Of a stretch of DNA of 64,000 nucleotides, positions 1,702-56,888 are shown piece by piece; position 1 is the first letter of the stretch; each line of letters begins with the position of its first letter. Under the pieces are notes generated by a model. That model was not told where the DNA came from. It saw only the letters and a list, made by a program, of their open reading frames with translations, and ran no database searches. Source of the DNA: an uncultured delta proteobacterium (GTDB taxonomy: Bacteria > Desulfobacterota > RBG-13-43-22); contig CAWJJC010000006.1 in NCBI GenBank assembly GCA_963843145.1, positions 64,001-128,000 of the forward strand. Direction: 5' to 3'. A program made the translations under genes and the position numbers.

Positions 1702-1754
1702 CAATAATCAATAATCAATAATCAATAATCAATTGTCAATTGATTATTAATATT
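1702..1754. repeat. AT-rich heptamer palindromic array A
   Basis: (AATAATC)x4, central CAATTG, then reverse unit GATTATT. Confidence 0.85.
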
Positions 1755-21412: not shown

Positions 21413-21478
21413 AAATTCGAAATTCGAAGCACGAAATCCGAAACAAATTCAAATTTTCAAAATCCAGATAATCAAAAC
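21413..21478. repeat. Second heptamer family (AAATTCG/AAGCACG/AAATCCG)
   Basis: AAATTCG AAATTCG AAGCACG AAATCCG AAAC; related strings at 44324-44347 and 7925-7938. Confidence 0.65.
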
Positions 21479-21545
21479 TAAACCCTATAAAGCGTCATTT
21501 CTCGCAGCGCTTTTGGGCGGGAATCCAGTCTTTCAGGGTTGGATT

Positions 21546-26394: not shown

Positions 26395-26490
26395 CGAGGC
26401 CCGATTTCAAACTAGGCCTTCCCGCCCCCGGGAACGCCCCGAAGGATGAAAATGACTGGGAGGCAACAGCCTAAGTGAATGATATAAAAA

Positions 26491-26517
26491 ATTAATAATC
26501 AATAGTTAATTATTAAT
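26491..26517. repeat. AT-rich heptamer palindromic array B
   Basis: ATTAATAATCAATAGTTAATTATTAAT. Confidence 0.7.
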
Positions 26518-26542
26518 GAATGTCTATGCAGGAGGATACCCT

Positions 26543-31595: not shown

Positions 31596-31727
31596 AAAGA
31601 GGGAAGATAGAAGAAGGAAGAGGGAAGCAAAAAGGGGATCATGGCCTCTGCTCAAACCCCCGTCCCTGAGGCGGGCGCCCGCGAAGAATGAAAAAATAGG
31701 GGGAGACATAAGCCGAACTGTTTGACA

Positions 31728-31766
31728 TTAGTAATTAATAATCAATTGTTAATTATTAATCATTGA
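31728..31766. repeat. AT-rich heptamer palindromic array C
   Basis: TAATTAATAATCAATTGTTAATTATTAATCATTGAT. Confidence 0.8.
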
Positions 31767-31876
31767 TGAAGTGCCTTGGTGGCACACCTTTGTATTTTCA
31801 TATTCTATTTTGTGCCCTTCTCCCCTCTGTTTTTTCTTCCATCTTCCATCTCCCCTCTTCCCTCTGCTCCCTGTCC

Positions 31877-33110: not shown

Positions 33111-33129
33111 CATCAGGTTCTTCAACAGG

Positions 33130-33312
33130 TTGGCCCGGCGGTCGTCTTCTGGCTCCCCCTCCCCTCCAACGATCTTCCCGCCCGTCTGAAGACGGGCCGT
33201 GATCCATACCCGGCTGGAAAGGTTTCTTTGCCCGAATGGGAAAAGACAGGGTTACAGCGGCGGGACCGCCGCGGATTTTCACCGCGTTCCGTACCCGCCC
33301 GGCCTACATCTT
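33130..33312 (-). ncRNA. Cobalamin riboswitch
   Basis: GGAACGCGGTGAAAATCCGCGGCGGTCCCGCCGCTGTAA...GGGAAG...AGCCAGAAGAC on the minus strand upstream of cobT; TTGACA promoter at 33352-33347. Confidence 0.9.
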
Positions 33313-33397
33313 TTTTTAAACTACCTTAAATAAGGACCCTCCTGATTGTCAAGTCAAAAAATCCCTAAGTCTGAACGGCAGAAATGAGAAACAGGAG

Positions 33398-35198: not shown

Positions 35199-35273
35199 TG
35201 GAGCCGGCGATGGGATTTGAACCCGCGACCTGCTGATTACGAATCAGCTGCTCTACCCCTGAGCTACGCCGGC
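35199..35273 (-). tRNA. tRNA-Thr(CGT)
   Basis: GCCGGCGTAGCTCAGGGGTAGAGCA-GCTGA-TT-CGT-AA-TCAGC-AGGTCGCGGGTTCAAATCCCATCGCCGGCTCCA. Confidence 0.96.
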
Positions 35274-44378: not shown

Positions 44379-44843
44379 ATGAAAAAACTTAAGGAACGCT
44401 ATTCCCATCTCGATCTGGCTTATCTCAAGGAAAGCCTGATCACCACCGGGCGCACCGGCAACCAGTTTCTCCGCTTTTCCCTGGTGGGCGCCAGCGGAGT
44501 GGTGGTCAACCTGGCCGTGTACACCCTGGCCATTTATGTTTTCAACCTCCATTACCTCCTGGCCGCGACCCTTTCTTTTTTGGTGGCCATGACCAATAAT
44601 TTTCTCCTGAACCGCTATTGGACCTTTAAGACCCACCAATCGACCACCCAGGGGTTCGGGGGCCAGTACTTCAAATATTTCCTGGTCACCTTATTCGGGT
44701 ATACGGTGAACATGGTCCTCTTATGGGTCTTTATTGACGGTTTTCACTGGGACAAGATTTTTTCTCAATTGGTGGCTATTCTGGTAACTACCCTGAGTAA
44801 TTTTATCGGCAGCAAGATGTGGGCCTTCAAGGCCGGTAATTAA
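44379..44843 (+). CDS. GtrA-family membrane protein
   Basis: QFLRFSLVG, NFLLNRYWTF, NFIGSKMWAF. Confidence 0.9.
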   Translation: MKKLKERYSHLDLAYLKESLITTGRTGNQFLRFSLVGASGVVVNLAVYTLAIYVFNLHYLLAATLSFLVAMTNNFLLNRYWTFKTHQSTTQGFGGQYFKYFLVTLFGYTVNMVLLWVFIDGFHWDKIFSQLVAILVTTLSNFIGSKMWAFKAGN

Positions 44844-44886
44844 TAATTAATAATCAATAATCAATTGTTAATTATTAATTGTTAAC
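44838..44886. repeat. AT-rich heptamer palindromic array D
   Basis: AATTAATAATTAATAATCAATAATCAATTGTTAATTATTAATTGTTAA; contains the gtrA-like stop codon. Confidence 0.85.
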
Positions 44887-50405: not shown

Positions 50406-50447
50406 TAATAATCAACAATCAACAATTAATTATTGATTATTAATTAA
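50406..50447. repeat. AT-rich heptamer palindromic array E
   Basis: TAATAATC AACAATC AACAATT AATTATT GATTATT AATT. Confidence 0.85.
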
Positions 50448-50498: not shown

Positions 50499-51647
50499 AT
50501 GAAACGATACCCAGTGATTCTTATTTTCATGGTATTTCTGACGGGGGGCAGCCTTTTAGTCAACGGTTGCGGCGCTGATAAAAAAACCGATGCCGCCAAA
50601 GGGCGGCGTGACCGGCCGGTGCCGGTCTCCGTCAGTCCCGCACTCCAGGAGACCATCCCGGTGGAGATTTCCGGCATCGGGAACGCCGAAGCCCATTCCA
50701 CCGTTTCCGTTAAATCGCGTATCGGCGGTGAACTGAAAAAAATCCACTTTCGGGAAGGCCAGGAAGTCCGTCAGGGAGACCTGATTTTTACCATCGACCC
50801 CCAACCCTACGAAGCCGCTCTGAAACAAGCCCAGGCCAATCTGGCCCGGACGGCGGCCCTGGCCAAAAAAGCGGAAGAGGACCTGCGGCGGTATCAGGAC
50901 CTGATCCGGAAGGAATACATCAGCCAGGAACAGTTTGACCAGGCGAAGGCCAATGCCGACGTCCAGACGGCGGCCCTCAAAGCCGATCAGGCGGCGGTGG
51001 AGAATGCCCGCCTGAATCTGAGTTATTGTTTTATCCACGCCCCTTTGACTGGGGTGACCGGCAGCCTGTTGTTCAATCAGGGGGCCCAAATTAAGGCCAA
51101 TGACGACAAGGCCATGGTCACCATCAATCGGGTTCAACCCATCTACGTCAGTTTCTCCGTACCCGAGCAATACCTCCCCGAGATAAAAAAATATTCGGCC
51201 CGGGGACCGTTGAAGGTCAGGGCCTCCGCGGACAACGGCGACAAAATTACGGAGGAGGGTTTGCTGACCTTTATCGACAATGCCGTGGACCAGACCACAG
51301 GAACGATCCGTCTCAAGGCCACCTTCGACAATCCGAATAGAAAGCTCTGGCCGGGTCAATTCCTGCGGGTCTCCCTGGCCTTGAGTGCGCAGGCCGACGC
51401 CATCGTCGTACCTTCTCAGGCCATCCAGACCGGCGTTCAGGGACAGTACGTTTTTGTGGCCACTGCTGAGGAGAAAGCCGAAACCCGGACGGTGGTGACG
51501 GGGAGGAATTTTGACGGACAAACGGTTATCGAAAAAGGCCTGAAAGCCGGGGAACGGGTGGTCACCGACGGGCAGTTTCAGCTCGTTCCCGGGAGCAGGT
51601 TGCAGATCAAGCAGGCGGTGACGGCTCCCGGAGTACAGCGCCCATGA
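50499..51647 (+). CDS. RND efflux periplasmic adaptor (MdtA-like)
   Basis: F.EGQ.V..GD, IDNAVDQTTGT, LWPGQF. Confidence 0.92.
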   Translation: MKRYPVILIFMVFLTGGSLLVNGCGADKKTDAAKGRRDRPVPVSVSPALQETIPVEISGIGNAEAHSTVSVKSRIGGELKKIHFREGQEVRQGDLIFTIDPQPYEAALKQAQANLARTAALAKKAEEDLRRYQDLIRKEYISQEQFDQAKANADVQTAALKADQAAVENARLNLSYCFIHAPLTGVTGSLLFNQGAQIKANDDKAMVTINRVQPIYVSFSVPEQYLPEIKKYSARGPLKVRASADNGDKITEEGLLTFIDNAVDQTTGTIRLKATFDNPNRKLWPGQFLRVSLALSAQADAIVVPSQAIQTGVQGQYVFVATAEEKAETRTVVTGRNFDGQTVIEKGLKAGERVVTDGQFQLVPGSRLQIKQAVTAPGVQRP

Positions 51648-54600
51648 ACATCTCCGCCGGGTTTATCCGCCGCCCGGTCATGACCACCTTGGTGATGGCC
51701 GGCATCCTGATTTTCGGGATCTTGGGCTACCGTTCCCTGCCGGTCAGTGACTTGCCTAACGTGGATTTCCCGACCATCCTGGTATCGGCCGAATTACCCG
51801 GGGCTTCTCCGGAGACCATGGCCTCGGCCGTGGCCACCCCCCTGGAAAAGGAATTTTCCACCATCGCCGGGCTGGATTCCATGAACTCCACCAGTGCCCT
51901 GGGGATTACCCAGATCACCCTCCAGTTCAATCTGGATCGGAGCCTCGATGCCGCCGCCCAGGATATTCAATCGTCCATATCCAAGGCCGCCCGGCTGCTG
52001 CCTCCCACCCTGCCCACCCCCCCGTCCTTTCGCAAAGTGAACCCGGCCGATCAACCGGTCCTTTACCTGGCCCTGCAATCGGATCTCCTGCCCCTGTCCG
52101 TAGTGGACGAATACGCCCAGACCACCATCGCCCAGCGGATCTCCATGATCAGCGGGGTGGCCCAGGTGCTGGTCTACGGCTCCCAGAAATTCGCGGTCCG
52201 GGTGCAACTCAACCCGCAGGCCCTGGCCTCCCGGGGGATCGGGATCGATGAGATCGCCGCCGCCGTGGACAAAGGCAACGTCAATCTGCCCACCGGTACA
52301 CTCTACGGTCGCCATCAGGCCTTCAACCTCCAGGCCAGCGGGCAGCTCATGAAGGCCGAAGATTACAAGTCATTGATCGTGGCCTATAAAGGCGGCGCCC
52401 CGATCCGGCTGCAGGAGCTCGGTCGGGCCTTCTCCAGCGTCGAGAACGACAAAATTGCCAGTTGGTACAATAACCAGCGGGCCATTGTTCTGGCCATCCA
52501 GCGGCAACCGGGGACCAATACCATCGAAGTGGTGGATTCCATCAAAAAGCTGTTGCCGCAATTCCAGGCGCAACTTCCGGCCTCCCTGGAATTCGCGGTC
52601 CTGTACGACCGCTCCCAGTCTATCCGGGAGTCGGTGAACGATGTCAAATTCACCCTGATCCTGACCATCTCCCTGGTGATCCTGGTCATCTTTCTGTTTC
52701 TGCGTAATTTTTCCGCCACCGTCATCCCCAGTCTGGCCCTGCCCATGTCCATTGTGGGCACTTTTGCCGCCATGCAGCTCCTGGGATTCAACCTGGACAA
52801 TCTATCCCTCATGGCCCTGATCCTCTCGGTGGGTTTCGTGGTGGACGACGCCATCGTCATGCTGGAGAATATCGTCCGCCACCTGGAAAAGGGCGAGGCC
52901 CCCATGGAGGCCGCCCTGAACGGCTCCAGGGAAATCAGCTTTACCATTCTCTCCATGACCGTTTCCCTGGCGGCGGTTTTTATTCCGGTTTTGTTTATGG
53001 GGGGGATTCTGGGACGACTGCTTCACGAATTTGCCGTGGTCATTGCCGTGGCCATATTGATCTCCGGGTTTGTCTCCTTAAGCCTGACCCCCATGCTCTG
53101 CAGCCGCTTCCTGCGCCCGATGCGGGAGCAGGCCCATGGCCGACTCTATATGTTCATGGAACGATTTTTCGACGGGATGCTGCGGGTCTACGACTGGAGC
53201 CTGAAGAAGGTTTTAATTTATCGCCGGACCACCATGGCCGTAACCGCCCTGACCCTGGCCGCCACCGTGTACCTGTTTATCATCAGTCCTAAAGGCTTTA
53301 TTCCTAGTGAAGACACGGGCCAAATCTTCTGCATCACCGAGGCCGCCCAGGGGATCTCATTTGAAAACATGGTCCGCCACCAGCAGGCCCTGGCCGCCAT
53401 CGTTCAGAAAGACCCCAATGTCAGCAATTTCATGTCCGCGGTCGGTGCCGGGGGATCCAGTGTTTCCGGGAACGCCGGTCGAATGTTTATCCGGCTGAAG
53501 CCGAGGGGCGACCGGAAACTGAGCGCCGATGAACTCATCCAATCGCTGCGGGTCAAACTGGCCACGGTGCCGGGCATCCGCATCTTTCTGCAGAATCCCC
53601 CCATGATCCGCATCGGAGGCCAGTTCACCAAGAGCCTCTATCAGTTCACGCTGCAGAGCCCCAATACCAATGAACTCTATTATTACGCCCCCCTGTTGGA
53701 GGCCCGGCTGAAGACCTTGCCGGACCTGCAGGATGTGACCAGCGACCTGCAGAACCAGAATCCGGAGATCGACATCGAAATCAATCGCGACAAGGCCACC
53801 GCGCTGGGGGTGACGGCCGAGCAGATTGAAAATGCCCTGTACACCGCTTATGGGTCCCGCCAGGTGTCCACTATCTACACGGCCAACAATGCCTATAAGG
53901 TAATCATGGAAGTAGAACCCCAATACCAGATGGATCCCGAAGTCCTGGCCATGCTCTATATCCACTCGGCCCAAGGCCCATTGGTTCCCCTGAAGGCGGT
54001 GGCCAACCTGAGCGCCGGGGTCGGCCCGCTGCTGGTCAATCACGCCGGGCAACTCCCCTCCGTGACGATCTCCTTCAACCTCCGGCCGGGCGTATCCCTG
54101 AGCGAGGCGGTGAAGCAGGTGGAAAAGATCTCCCGCAACCTGCTGCCATCCACCATCAGCCCCAATTTCCAGGGAACGGCCCAGGCCTTCCAGGCCTCAC
54201 AGCAAGGTTTGTTGGTGCTGCTGATCCTGGCCATCGTGGTGATCTATATCATCCTGGGAATATTATATGAAAGTTTCATCCATCCCCTGACGATTCTTTC
54301 CGGCCTCCCGGCAGCCGCTTTCGGCGCCCTCCTGACCCTGAGGGTTTTCGGGGTCGAATTGAGCATCTATGCCTTCGTGGGCATCATCATGCTGGTGGGC
54401 ATCGTCAAAAAGAACGCCATCATGATGATCGACTTTGCCCTGGAGGCCCAGCGCCACGACGGAAAATCTTCCCTGGAAGCCATCTACCAGGGTTGCCTGG
54501 TCCGCTTCCGGCCCATCATGATGACCACCATGGCCGCCTTCATGGGCACCCTGCCCATCGCCCTGGGTCTCGGGGCCGGCGCCGAATCCCGCCGACCGTT

Positions 54601-54733
54601 GGGTCTGGCGGTGGTTGGCGGTCTGGTTTTTTCCCAGTTGCTCACCCTGTACATTACCCCGGTCTTTTTTACCTACATGGAAGCCTTTAAGAAGAAATTC
54701 GGCGGTTCTTCCCGGGCCCAATCTAAGGATTAA
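51644..54733 (+). CDS. RND efflux permease (MdtB/C-like)
   Basis: FIRRPVMTTL, GFVVDDAIV, GIVKKNAIMMIDFA, RFRPIMMTT. Confidence 0.95.
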   Translation: MNISAGFIRRPVMTTLVMAGILIFGILGYRSLPVSDLPNVDFPTILVSAELPGASPETMASAVATPLEKEFSTIAGLDSMNSTSALGITQITLQFNLDRSLDAAAQDIQSSISKAARLLPPTLPTPPSFRKVNPADQPVLYLALQSDLLPLSVVDEYAQTTIAQRISMISGVAQVLVYGSQKFAVRVQLNPQALASRGIGIDEIAAAVDKGNVNLPTGTLYGRHQAFNLQASGQLMKAEDYKSLIVAYKGGAPIRLQELGRAFSSVENDKIASWYNNQRAIVLAIQRQPGTNTIEVVDSIKKLLPQFQAQLPASLEFAVLYDRSQSIRESVNDVKFTLILTISLVILVIFLFLRNFSATVIPSLALPMSIVGTFAAMQLLGFNLDNLSLMALILSVGFVVDDAIVMLENIVRHLEKGEAPMEAALNGSREISFTILSMTVSLAAVFIPVLFMGGILGRLLHEFAVVIAVAILISGFVSLSLTPMLCSRFLRPMREQAHGRLYMFMERFFDGMLRVYDWSLKKVLIYRRTTMAVTALTLAATVYLFIISPKGFIPSEDTGQIFCITEAAQGISFENMVRHQQALAAIVQKDPNVSNFMSAVGAGGSSVSGNAGRMFIRLKPRGDRKLSADELIQSLRVKLATVPGIRIFLQNPPMIRIGGQFTKSLYQFTLQSPNTNELYYYAPLLEARLKTLPDLQDVTSDLQNQNPEIDIEINRDKATALGVTAEQIENALYTAYGSRQVSTIYTANNAYKVIMEVEPQYQMDPEVLAMLYIHSAQGPLVPLKAVANLSAGVGPLLVNHAGQLPSVTISFNLRPGVSLSEAVKQVEKISRNLLPSTISPNFQGTAQAFQASQQGLLVLLILAIVVIYIILGILYESFIHPLTILSGLPAAAFGALLTLRVFGVELSIYAFVGIIMLVGIVKKNAIMMIDFALEAQRHDGKSSLEAIYQGCLVRFRPIMMTTMAAFMGTLPIALGLGAGAESRRPLGLAVVGGLVFSQLLTLYITPVFFTYMEAFKKKFGGSSRAQSKD

Positions 54734-54873: not shown

Positions 54874-54920
54874 GTAATTAACAATTAACAATTGCCAATT
54901 GATTATTGATTATTAATTAC
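54874..54920. repeat. AT-rich heptamer palindromic array F (5' flank of the four-helix-bundle gene)
   Basis: GTAATT AACAATT AACAATT GCCAATT GATTATT GATTATT AATTAC, ending 5 nt before the ATG. Confidence 0.88.
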
Positions 54921-54925
54921 TATTT

Positions 54926-55303
54926 ATGGCCAAAGGCGACGATATCCAGGAACGGCTTATCGATTTTGCGGTTCAAATCATAAGGCTTTCAGCTCAACTA
55001 CCCAAAACGCCCGCCGGAAAACATGTTGCCGGTCAAATTTTAAAAAGTGGGACATCCCCGGCACCCAATTACGGCGAAGCGCGTTCTGCGGAAAGCTCGA
55101 ATGATTTTATTCATAAACTGAGGGTTGCTCTCAAGGAATTAAATGAAACCAAAGTGTGGCTACATATAATCCGGAAAAGCGGGATGATCTCTTTTGAGGA
55201 AATTTTGGAATTATACCAATCTTGTGATGAACTTTGTAGAATCATTTGTGCCAGCGTAATGACCTCCACCAGAAGAATAAAACCGGGGGTAAATAATCAA
55301 TAA
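54926..55303 (+). CDS. Four-helix-bundle protein (TIGR02436 / 23S rRNA IVS protein / Avd-like)
   Basis: ERLIDFAV, QILKSGTSPAPNYGEA, AESSNDFIHKL..ALKELNET..WL. Confidence 0.9.
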   Translation: MAKGDDIQERLIDFAVQIIRLSAQLPKTPAGKHVAGQILKSGTSPAPNYGEARSAESSNDFIHKLRVALKELNETKVWLHIIRKSGMISFEEILELYQSCDELCRIICASVMTSTRRIKPGVNNQ

Positions 55304-55333
55304 TCAATTGTTAATATTCAATTATTAATTATT
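55291..55333. repeat. AT-rich heptamer palindromic array G (3' flank, contains the gene's stop codon)
   Basis: AAATAATCAATAATCAATTGTTAATATTCAATTATTAATTATT. Confidence 0.88.
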
Positions 55334-55358: not shown

Positions 55359-56888
55359 ATGATCTCCAAAATCTTCAGCAGCGCCATTTTGGGCATCGAC
55401 GCCTACATCGTCCAGGTGGAAGTAGACATCGCCCGGGGGTTGCCCTCCTTTTCCACGGTCGGTCTACCGGAAGGGGCGGTGCGGGAAAGCAAGGACCGGG
55501 TCAAATCGGCCATCAAAAATTCCGGGTTTGAGTTTCCCAGCCACCGGATCACCGTCAACCTGGCCCCGGCCGACATCAAAAAGGAAGGTTCGGCTTTTGA
55601 CCTGCCGATCGCCGTGGGGATCCTGGCGGCCACGGAGCTGGTCCCCCCCGATCTGCTGGGTCAATTTCTTCTATTGGGGGAATTGTCCTTAAACGGTGAG
55701 GTCAAGCCCGTCCGGGGGGGGTTGCCCACGGCCCTGTCGTTGAAAAAGAACGGCTACCGGGGCCTGCTGCTGCCCGAGGCCAATGCCTATGAGGCCGCGG
55801 TAGTGGAGGGCATTGATGTTGTCCCGGTGAAGACCCTGGGTGAAGTGGTGGAATTTCTAAATGGTGTCACCACACTTCCCACCTTTACCATCGATCATGA
55901 GCACCTCTTTCCCAGCCGGCCGGTCTTTCCCTTGGACTTCAACGAAGTGAAGGGCCAGGAACAGGTCAAACGGGCACTGGAAATCGCCGCGGCCGGCGGC
56001 CACAATATCATCATGATCGGGCCTCCGGGCTCAGGCAAAACCATGCTGGCCCAACGGCTTCCGTCCATACTGCCCCAACTGACCTTTGAGGAGGCCCTGG
56101 AGACGTCCAAGGTATACAGCGTCATGGGTCTGATGCCCGGAGACCGGGCCTTGATTACCACCAGGCCCTTTCGGTCCCCCCACCACACGGTGTCCGACGC
56201 CGGACTGATCGGCGGCGGGCAGATCCCTCGGCCGGGCGAAGTCAGTCTGGCTCACAACGGCGTCCTTTTCCTGGATGAGCTGCCGGAATTCAAAAAAAAT
56301 GTTCTGGAAGTGCTGCGTCAGCCGCTGGAAGACGGTCAGGTGACGATTTCCAGGGCCATCACCTCCCTGACCTATCCGGCCCGTTTCATGCTGGTGGCGG
56401 CCATGAATCCCTGCCCCTGCGGATTTCTTTCCGATCCCCAGCGGGAATGCCAGTGCACCTATCCTCAGATCCAGCGCTACAAGTCCAAGATCTCCGGCCC
56501 CCTCCTGGACCGCATCGATCTCCATATCGAAGTGCCCGCCGTGAAATTCAAGGACTTGACCGAACCGGCGGGAGGGGAACCTTCGGAAGTCGTCCGGGCC
56601 AGGGTCCAGGCCGCCCGGGAGAGGCAAAAAGAACGCTTCCTGGCCAAAAATGTTTACTGCAACGCCCAGATGGGCCCGCGATTGATTAAGAAATTCTGCC
56701 CCCTGGATGCGGAGGCCCATCGCCTCTTGGAGCAGGCCATGGAATACCTGGGCTTCAGCGCCCGGGCCTACCACCGCATCCTCAAGATCTCCCGGACCAT
56801 CGCTGATTTGGAAGCCTGTTCGGCCATCCAATCGCGCCACGTCTCCGAGGCCATTCAGTACCGCAGTTTGGACCGGAGAGTCCTGTAG
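55359..56888 (+). CDS. comM: YifB/ComM Mg-chelatase-like AAA+ ATPase
   Basis: [49 protein letters not shown]. Confidence 0.93.

Follow-up and report, generated by a model that had tools for sequence, protein, structure and literature searches.

A four-helix-bundle gene between complementary heptamer arrays forms a mobile cassette with gene-less derivatives

A small gene of the TIGR02436 (S23p) family, enclosed by two complementary arrays of heptamers, lies between an RND efflux permease gene and comM in a 5.35-Mb genome (G000). Gene and arms together are a real and mobile unit: the arms are complementary and change together, and gene-less derivatives of the cognate repeat families are numerous, polymorphic and replace other hairpins. 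As the explanation we tentatively put first, the unit would be a selfish mobile cassette built like the ORF-bearing intervening sequences (IVSs) of 23S rRNA, whose Avd-fold protein binds its cognate hairpins and promotes their homing-like copying.

Structure of the cassette and its protein

The window, which here means the whole stretch of 64,000 nucleotides analysed, belongs to contig C6 of G000. ORF, profile and repeat searches confirmed the order given in a preliminary description of this DNA, namely RND pump, array F, a 125-aa TIGR02436-type gene, array G and comM (Table 1). They also confirmed that array G, starting at 55291, supplies the last codons and the stop of an ORF that runs to 55303. 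The cassette is AT-rich in a GC-rich window, as had been stated (37.8% vs 54.2% GC). Each array is an inverted copy of the other (85% over 40 nt) and is by itself weakly palindromic. When the whole cassette is folded in silico, the two arrays form a duplex that encloses the gene (-120 kcal/mol, z -2.8, equalled by 0 of 100 shuffles), so that by this computed fold an S23p-family ORF sits within a terminal stem, as in an ORF-bearing IVS; folded singly, the two arms form weak hairpins (z -1.3 for F and -2.1 for G). No terminator was seen in a promoter scan, which gave two weak 9/12 matches within array F (4 found vs 1.7 expected). Rfam has no family at the arrays and no rRNA in the window; elsewhere in the window it places a cobalamin riboswitch (33120-33317) and two tRNA genes (2600-2673 and 35202-35273). 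Four DNA sequencing runs, searched as contigs, cover the stretch piecemeal, and no joint across the cassette was seen in those pieces.

Table 1. Features of the cassette locus and gene-less elements in the window
Feature	Position	Strand	Remarks
Solo array, alpha-type flanks	1702..1749		hairpin z -5.5
Gene-less element, AAATTCG heptamer family	21413..21480		G002 without it at the same site
Solo array	26490..26518		same family in G002, longer by one unit block
Outer gene-less element of another heptamer family, enclosing the 31729 array	31597..31865		purine-rich arm 31597-31627, pyrimidine-rich arm 31835-31865
Solo array, beta-type flanks, within shell	31729..31764		G002: different hairpin repeat between the same shell borders
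Solo array	44838..44885		shorter in G002; absent in G003; different repeat in G001
Solo array between MFS and RND-adaptor genes	50406..50446		variant in G002
RND efflux permease gene	51644..54733	+	upstream host gene, outside the element; adjoining adaptor typed by profile
Array F	54875..54920		upstream arm, ~6.5 heptamer units; itself quasi-palindromic; 3' end 5 nt short of the ATG
Four-helix-bundle gene, TIGR02436 / PF05635 (23S_rRNA_IVP)	54926..55303	+	125 aa, pI 8.9
Array G	55291..55333		downstream arm, ~6 units, complementary to F; codes the final codons and stop
comM/YifB ATPase gene	55359..56888	+	downstream host gene, outside the element; TIGR00368 match

The ORF matches TIGR02436 (E 1e-24, 86.8 bits, cut-off 24) and PF05635 (E 1.1e-18, 67.8 bits, cut-off 33.8), the sole family to match the protein. 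Its structure model (pLDDT 92.6) matches BT_0352 (2RLD) and Xcc0516 (2GSC) in Foldseek, and the match to 2RLD (E 2.8e-6, TM ~0.8) predicts a four-helix-bundle fold. It also resembles the DGR accessory protein Avd (PDB 4DWL, 8UB7), which is likewise a basic protein with the same fold by a weaker Foldseek match to 4DWL (TM 0.63-0.70, E 0.06). Unlike in a DGR, there is neither an adjacent reverse transcriptase nor a template/variable repeat pair, and identity to Avd is 17%. The two solved relatives have five chains each, and by analogy with them the cassette protein is probably a pentamer. In the Avd pentamer all five protomers are reported to bind an RNA stem-loop (10.1101/2023.10.23.563531). 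The arms mostly have 3-6 units (72/82 loci), which would be compatible, as a speculation, with one unit per protomer. The putative role of the protein would be to bind and propagate the arrays.

The cassette site in relatives and selection on the gene

The cassette occupies the site between the same two genes in G001 and G003 (79-82% aa), and its 5' part is found at a contig end in G007. In the closest genome, G002 (comM 99% identical), the spacer is 447 bp shorter, the gene is gone and an 18-bp perfect AT palindrome is present; other genera examined have a different gene upstream of comM. The cassette is thus polymorphic for presence and absence at the RND-comM site, as had been predicted, being kept in three relatives and deleted in G002. 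Arm sequences vary between the three orthologous cassettes, but in every one of them the own partner gives the strongest duplex, in G003 narrowly (own vs crossed duplexes -36.8 vs -27.6/-30.9, -42.7 vs -24.1/-28.8 and -42.1 vs -41.9/-37.6 kcal/mol).

Judged by a dN/dS of 0.06-0.09, the cassette protein is under purifying selection. Its dS is 0.8-1.8 vs 0.2-0.9 for the neighbouring genes (2-4 times), a difference that points either to replacement in situ by sister cassettes or to a weaker constraint on codons. Homologs of at least 68% identity sit at different loci, with 10 neighbourhood types among 11 loci, and the closest of them share the heptamer unit. From these comparisons of sequence, the cassette evidently occurs at unrelated loci and comes and goes. 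Homing elements follow an invade-fix-decay cycle. A gene that moves among loci under strong purifying selection, and is frequently broken after fixation, resembles this pattern.

Gene-less arrays in the window and the genome

Gene-free recurrences of the arm architecture had been described at 1702, 26491, 31728, 44838 and 50406, always intergenic. These were borne out, with the refinement that the array at 44838 starts at the stop codon of the upstream gene. A degenerate 19-nt pattern of the family has 36 matches in the window vs 0.03 expected, all of them in the two cassette arms and the five solo sites, and 3/5 solo arrays fold strongly (z -3.8 to -5.5). Period-7 runs number 319 genome-wide vs 20-34 for periods 5, 8, 10 and 11. 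G000 contains 111 candidate sites of the cassette family, of which two lie in called genes and a handful, probably there by chance, lack the palindrome, leaving ~105 real ones. By the gene calls of a simple caller made for the analysis, the arrays are intergenic and often near starts or stops. Co-orientation with host genes is not above background (75/90 upstream and 72/92 downstream vs 78%; p 0.14 and 0.54).

A solo AACATCG element at ~172420-172640 of G000 contig C27 still contains some 30 codons from the start of its cognate gene (85% over 87 nt). This directly shows internal deletion as one route to a solo element. MITEs are likened to these elements because they, too, include gene-less derivatives with an internal deletion between inverted ends; the AACATCG sister family provides such a derivative, and for the cassette family the G002 scar is the only one. 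Unlike MITEs, the elements have neither a target duplication of fixed length nor a cognate DDE transposase. The number of units varies by slippage at one locus (L074). On a plasmid of Nostoc sp. ATCC 53789 (L251) the downstream arm has grown to >35 heptamer units, and arms can become long STRR-like tracts. The cyanobacterial STRR are further intergenic heptamer repeats, and small mobile repeats of cyanobacteria have reportedly been described by Elhai and colleagues.

Pairing of genes with heptamers

G000 has 16 TIGR02436 matches, comprising 12 short-type genes and 4 long suffix-domain genes. Of the short-type paralogs, nine are flanked on each side by a period-7 array, and the other three comprise one with period-9 arms, one whose arms are degenerate and a truncated gene; two-sided period-7 arrays accompany 0/4 of the long genes. 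The expectation that arrays are enriched beside four-helix-bundle genes therefore held, with 9/12 short-type paralogs vs 35/5008 other G000 genes, 6 of these with inverted arms. Each paralog has its own heptamer unit, and when families are seeded from the paralogs' arms, 262/303 intergenic period-7 arrays can be placed in one that has a cognate paralog. The four largest families are the cassette family (80 arrays), AACATCG (61), AAATTCG (57) and AAGATGG (36).

The association extends across phyla. Period-7 arrays stand on both sides at 52/82 homolog loci (80 from a homolog search and two more) vs 3/78 and 3/79 for controls, and other periods reach at most 2. Over the 106 loci with adequate flanks, from a total of 109, the score of an arm with its own partner is 50.7 vs 22.5 for crossed arms, and the own arm is the best of 106 in 42 cases. 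The heptamer is common (at most 1 mismatch) to 59-76% of pairs at 70-89% protein identity and to 6-12% at 30-69%; the pairs are not mutually independent, and one Acidobacteriota family is heavily represented among them.

Reciprocal patterns were run on 37 genomes from the homolog loci, namely 12 cognate genomes, 13 AAATGAC-armed genomes (Acidobacteriota, one Nitrospirota and one Planctomycetota) and 12 with other units. Outside the cassette locus, the cassette-family pattern has 1-106 matches in the cognate genomes vs 0-1 in the AAATGAC-armed ones. Conversely, the AAATGAC pattern has 22-472 matches in the AAATGAC-armed genomes vs 0-2 in 11/12 cognate-family genomes, the remaining one having 56. 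Three of the 12 other-unit genomes gave 27-62 matches to the cassette-family pattern, probably from related units. In distant genomes, going by these matches, it is usually the cognate heptamer, not another, that has expanded. Co-variation of repeat and protein clade, proposed earlier, is upheld by these reciprocal patterns together with the heptamer sharing at 70-89% identity.

The coupling of gene and array expansion is not strict. Six of 41 relatives have 112-511 matches to the cassette-family pattern and the other 35 have 0-4; the six belong to two genera only and hence are not independent. Three cognate genomes have just 1-2 matches outside the cassette. G011 has 76 AATATCG matches and no cognate gene among the 7 of its 9 paralogs whose flanks were viewed, and G014 and G018 have an AATATCG-cognate gene with 2 and 4 matches. 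In G003, 55 AAATTCG elements accompany a frameshifted gene. The AAATTCG gene of G002 is doubly frameshifted, with 14 elements vs 76 in G000, and G002, one genome that is 90% complete, has the lowest density of the cassette, AACATCG and AAATTCG families among G000-G003. A phage collection gave 2 distant matches only.

Both the paralog with period-9 arms and a GxxExxY gene (TIGR04256) lie between inverted arms (G000:C28:783068-783391 and G000:C27:220214-220561), as does a GIY-YIG-like gene (C28:574347; so named for its motif), which suggests a wider set of small gene-plus-hairpin cassettes. A polysaccharide-synthesis region (L246, G000:C19:72500-84500) contains small nucleotidyltransferase and toxin-antitoxin-like modules as well as three four-helix-bundle cassettes, two of them broken, and a GxxExxY gene that is also broken. 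Two GACAGAT-armed cassettes lie among very long heptamer and 35-mer tandem tracts at G000:C4:1-10200. On two cyanobacterial plasmids (L260, L262) a four-helix-bundle cassette stands between cas1 and cas2 in opposite orientation. The sequence context of G000:C1:2893 and C20:773276 is identical, which suggests a duplicated or redundantly assembled stretch.

Turnover and overwriting of array sites

Comparison of 43 cassette-family sites of G002, most of those listed, with G000 gave 16 sites with the same family, 13 with another multicopy repeat, 5 with none and 9 without a two-sided ortholog. Non-shared sites were re-occupied in 13/18 cases vs 28.5% of G000 spacers of at least 60 nt (p 1.5e-4), or in 11/16 when L067 and L107, by eye interrupted or decayed members of the same family, are set aside. 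The replacements include six AAATTCG elements and one AACATCG element. Between genomes with ~96% identical genes, 18/34 resolvable sites are not shared. In an unbiased 230 kb of G002 the overwriting is weaker: 19/115 orthologous spacers differ in repeat content, mostly in non-heptamer families, and 4 of the 19 are swaps (p 0.013 overall, 0.19 for spacers of at least 60 nt). Half-arrays joined to other repeats also occur, as if new hairpins land in old ones. Overwriting of occupied sites has been reported for REPINs (10.1101/2024.10.14.618302).

A further gene-less repeat, called here the shell, is a GC-rich hairpin with short AT-rich inverted ends and interchangeable palindromic cargo, seen throughout G000 and in the window at 31640-31800 and 26440-26480. 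The shell motif is found at 64/111 arrays vs 99/1000 random spacer points, and ~47/111 arrays, including the cassette arms, are without it. Its borders stay fixed while the cargo changes at the 31729 site of the window (G000 vs G002), L071 and L077. At 31729, G002 has a different hairpin between the same borders; part of the family is therefore carried by a separate gene-less shell, and this element may move arrays.

Insertion footprints

On plasmids of Nostoc flagelliforme a 399-bp gene is interrupted by a 524-bp cassette that has AATTCAA arms and is flanked by an 11-bp target duplication, with L252 and L253 as empty alleles (L254 did not align). The left end of this cassette opens with a small hairpin with a UUCG loop, a single case with a weak fold (z -1.4). 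The 3' part of the split gene appears to restart at an ATG formed at the right end of the cassette. Four plasmid copies in paralogous genes (L247-L249, L256) have 0 differences in 546 bp, and their flanks differ at 6-16/206 and 5-28/150 positions (3-19%); identical copies in diverged flanks are a signature of homing or gene conversion. A related cassette in Aulosira replaced 23-24 bp with no duplication. Direct repeats bracketing 78 other cassettes show no excess over controls, and of the heptamer indels between G000 and G002 five have 0-1 bp junction repeats and the sixth 4-5 bp. A general fixed-length target-site duplication was therefore rejected, with 11 bp seen once, none once and no excess in 78 loci. 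Variable footprints count against DDE and HUH transposases; those found here argue against either and fit capture during break repair or conversion.

Comparison with known systems

The closest described element is the ORF-bearing 23S rRNA IVS of Coxiella burnetii and Leptospira, which has the same protein family, a size of ~430-460 nt, terminal inverted repeats forming a stem round the ORF, heptamers just before the start codon, low GC and a sporadic distribution (PMC4990558). The Coxiella IVS is reported to have a 28-bp stem with GACAGAT heptamers and an RNase III cut at the first repeat (PMC4990558); a GACAGAT-type unit is used by two G000 paralogs. Unlike an rRNA IVS, the present cassette lies between protein-coding genes (RND and comM), has ~105 gene-less derivatives genome-wide, and has arms that are each palindromic. 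The cassette had been put forward as a candidate for an undescribed system. The combination of gene and arrays is confirmed; heptamers are already known in the Coxiella IVS.

With REP/REPIN-RAYT systems (REPtrons, TIRtrons) the cassette shares a gene between cognate palindromes, a genome-wide cognate family (PMC3733652, 10.1101/2024.10.14.618302), several systems per genome and overwriting of occupied extragenic spaces by other families (10.1101/2024.10.14.618302). A dispersed cognate palindrome family tracks the gene, with exceptions such as G003 and the AATATCG genomes, and the same extragenic space is overwritten by different families. Unlike in REP-RAYT, the protein is a helical bundle and not an HUH tyrosine (Y1) transposase, and the repeats are period-7 arrays with no GTAG/CGTC end tag. 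A linked RAYT/IS200 partner was rejected, as 0/11 Y1 transposase (PF01797) genes in G000 have heptamer arms. The REP-RAYT-type partnership suggested earlier is accordingly retained in part: cognate families and overwriting support it, and against it stand arrays with a broken or undetected gene, a gene without expansion, and the roughly half of the solo arrays that lie in a shell.

Lineage-specific intergenic period-7 arrays are also known as TAACTGA in Beggiatoaceae (PMC4679880), GGGAATC in Xanthomonas (PMC4692102) and the heptanucleotide elements of Geobacter (PMC2700814). They are often inverted pairs and variable between close relatives, with their spread unexplained, and unlike our arrays they are not linked to a four-helix-bundle gene in the available text of these sources. 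The gene is only listed in the available text of PMC5524665, and that of PMC3733652 treats palindromic repeats with no link to a four-helix-bundle gene. Beyond the Coxiella IVS, a literature search whose scope left most subscription journals and supplements outside found no link of the family to heptamer arms.

Proposed mechanism and competing explanations

In the selfish IVS-type cassette that we favour, which here sits within an operon of protein-coding genes, F and G would pair in the transcript as a stem of ~40 bp, with the gene looped out and its start hidden, and RNase III would excise the looped gene, which would make the insertion tolerated. The protein, probably as a pentamer, would bind its own heptamer hairpin, and once bound, both the cassette and solo hairpins would be copied more readily into breaks or fragile hairpins at other sites. 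Such copying would be done by host repair or gene conversion in a homing-like manner, rather than by a classic transposase. Solo arrays would originate from cassettes by internal deletion, spread by copying in trans and outlive the decayed gene for some time. We favour this explanation because of the arm pairing, the mobility, the cognate link, the overwriting and the low densities of three families in G002, which has lost the cassette gene and has its AAATTCG gene doubly frameshifted. The RNase III cut reported for the Coxiella IVS and the RNA stem-loop binding reported for the Avd pentamer also speak for it. Against it speak the arrays that persist with a frameshifted or unseen cognate gene (G003, G011), the gene without expansion (G014, G018), and the non-heptamer repeats of the lineage, which are equally polymorphic. 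Moreover, below 70% protein identity the heptamer shows no correlation, and this is difficult to reconcile with a tight reading of sequence by the protein.

The nearest competitor, which we regard as rather unlikely, keeps the arms for RNase III loop-out and makes the gene a hitch-hiker or gives it a host function. Solo arrays would then be scars amplified by sequence-blind host processes, such as the gene-less shell, hairpin breakage and repair, and slippage, and the cognate match would reflect only the seeding cassette. Turnover in all hairpin families of the lineage, the fixed shell borders with changing cargo, the arrays that outlast an intact gene and the slippage at L074 all agree with it. 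It accounts poorly for the ~47 arrays without a shell motif, the cassette arms among them, and for a period of 7 that is specific to the flanks of this family. In addition, purifying selection, unrelated loci in many phyla and frequent breakage once fixed are what a self-serving protein predicts.

Retro-mobility is improbable in our estimation. Here an Avd-like pentamer would bind the excised stem-loop RNA and enlist a reverse transcriptase, from the host or from a group II intron, that copies the RNA into a nick, in the way that Avd serves the enzyme of DGRs. The Avd fold, the reverse transcriptases encoded in G000, and the Nostoc insertion with its 11-bp duplication and UUCG loop, the loop type reported to be bound by Avd (10.1101/2023.10.23.563531), point in this direction. 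That hairpin is a single case with a weak fold, however, and the second clean insertion, in Aulosira, lacks a duplication; direct repeats around the 78 cassettes are no more frequent than in controls. Asymmetric solo elements are oriented without bias, whether judged by transcription (8 vs 9) or by GC skew (15 vs 17). A linked reverse transcriptase was likewise rejected, since 0/4 neighbourhoods viewed, of 8 reverse-transcriptase matches, hold a paralog. At one reverse-transcriptase locus (L241, G000:C6:148400-153800) the gene adjoins a 930-aa gene whose start we take to be SIR2-like, and this is possibly a defence locus.

Least credible is a regulatory network of selected binding sites for a host RNA- or DNA-binding regulator, as proposed for the Beggiatoaceae TAACTGA, since the frequent position near starts or stops, the re-occupation of the same spacers, which suggests that a hairpin is useful there, and the translational regulation proposed for another heptamer (PMC4679880) are outweighed by the many sites not common to genomes with ~96% identical genes, the substitution by unrelated repeats, the loss of the gene in G002 and the lack of orientation bias.

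Significance

The cassette is of the IVS kind, with a REPIN-like way of working that is new here, and no enzyme known to move it is attached. Further additions are the reciprocal genome-wide test, the overwriting, the scar allele and the insertion footprints. It ties together three puzzles, namely the function of S23p/TIGR02436 proteins, the origin and spread of rRNA IVSs, and the excess of heptamer repeats in bacterial intergenic DNA. More broadly, and with somewhat less confidence than in the selfish cassette itself, we propose that four-helix-bundle (S23p/Avd-like) proteins may be the trans-acting factors of a cross-phylum class of mobile elements, with clade-specific heptamer recognition and transposase-free, homing-like copying of the cassette and of its REPIN-like overwriting derivatives. 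The rRNA IVSs would then be cassettes landed in rRNA, bacterial heptamer repeats their debris and Avd a domesticated member. At least 9 gene-heptamer pairs in one genome leave the specificity open to simple cross-binding, and the recent insertions and empty alleles of cultured Nostoc strains make mobility testable in vivo. If the protein drives copying, the system would achieve mobility with no recognised nuclease or recombinase domain, and it would offer an origin for the DGR cofactor Avd.
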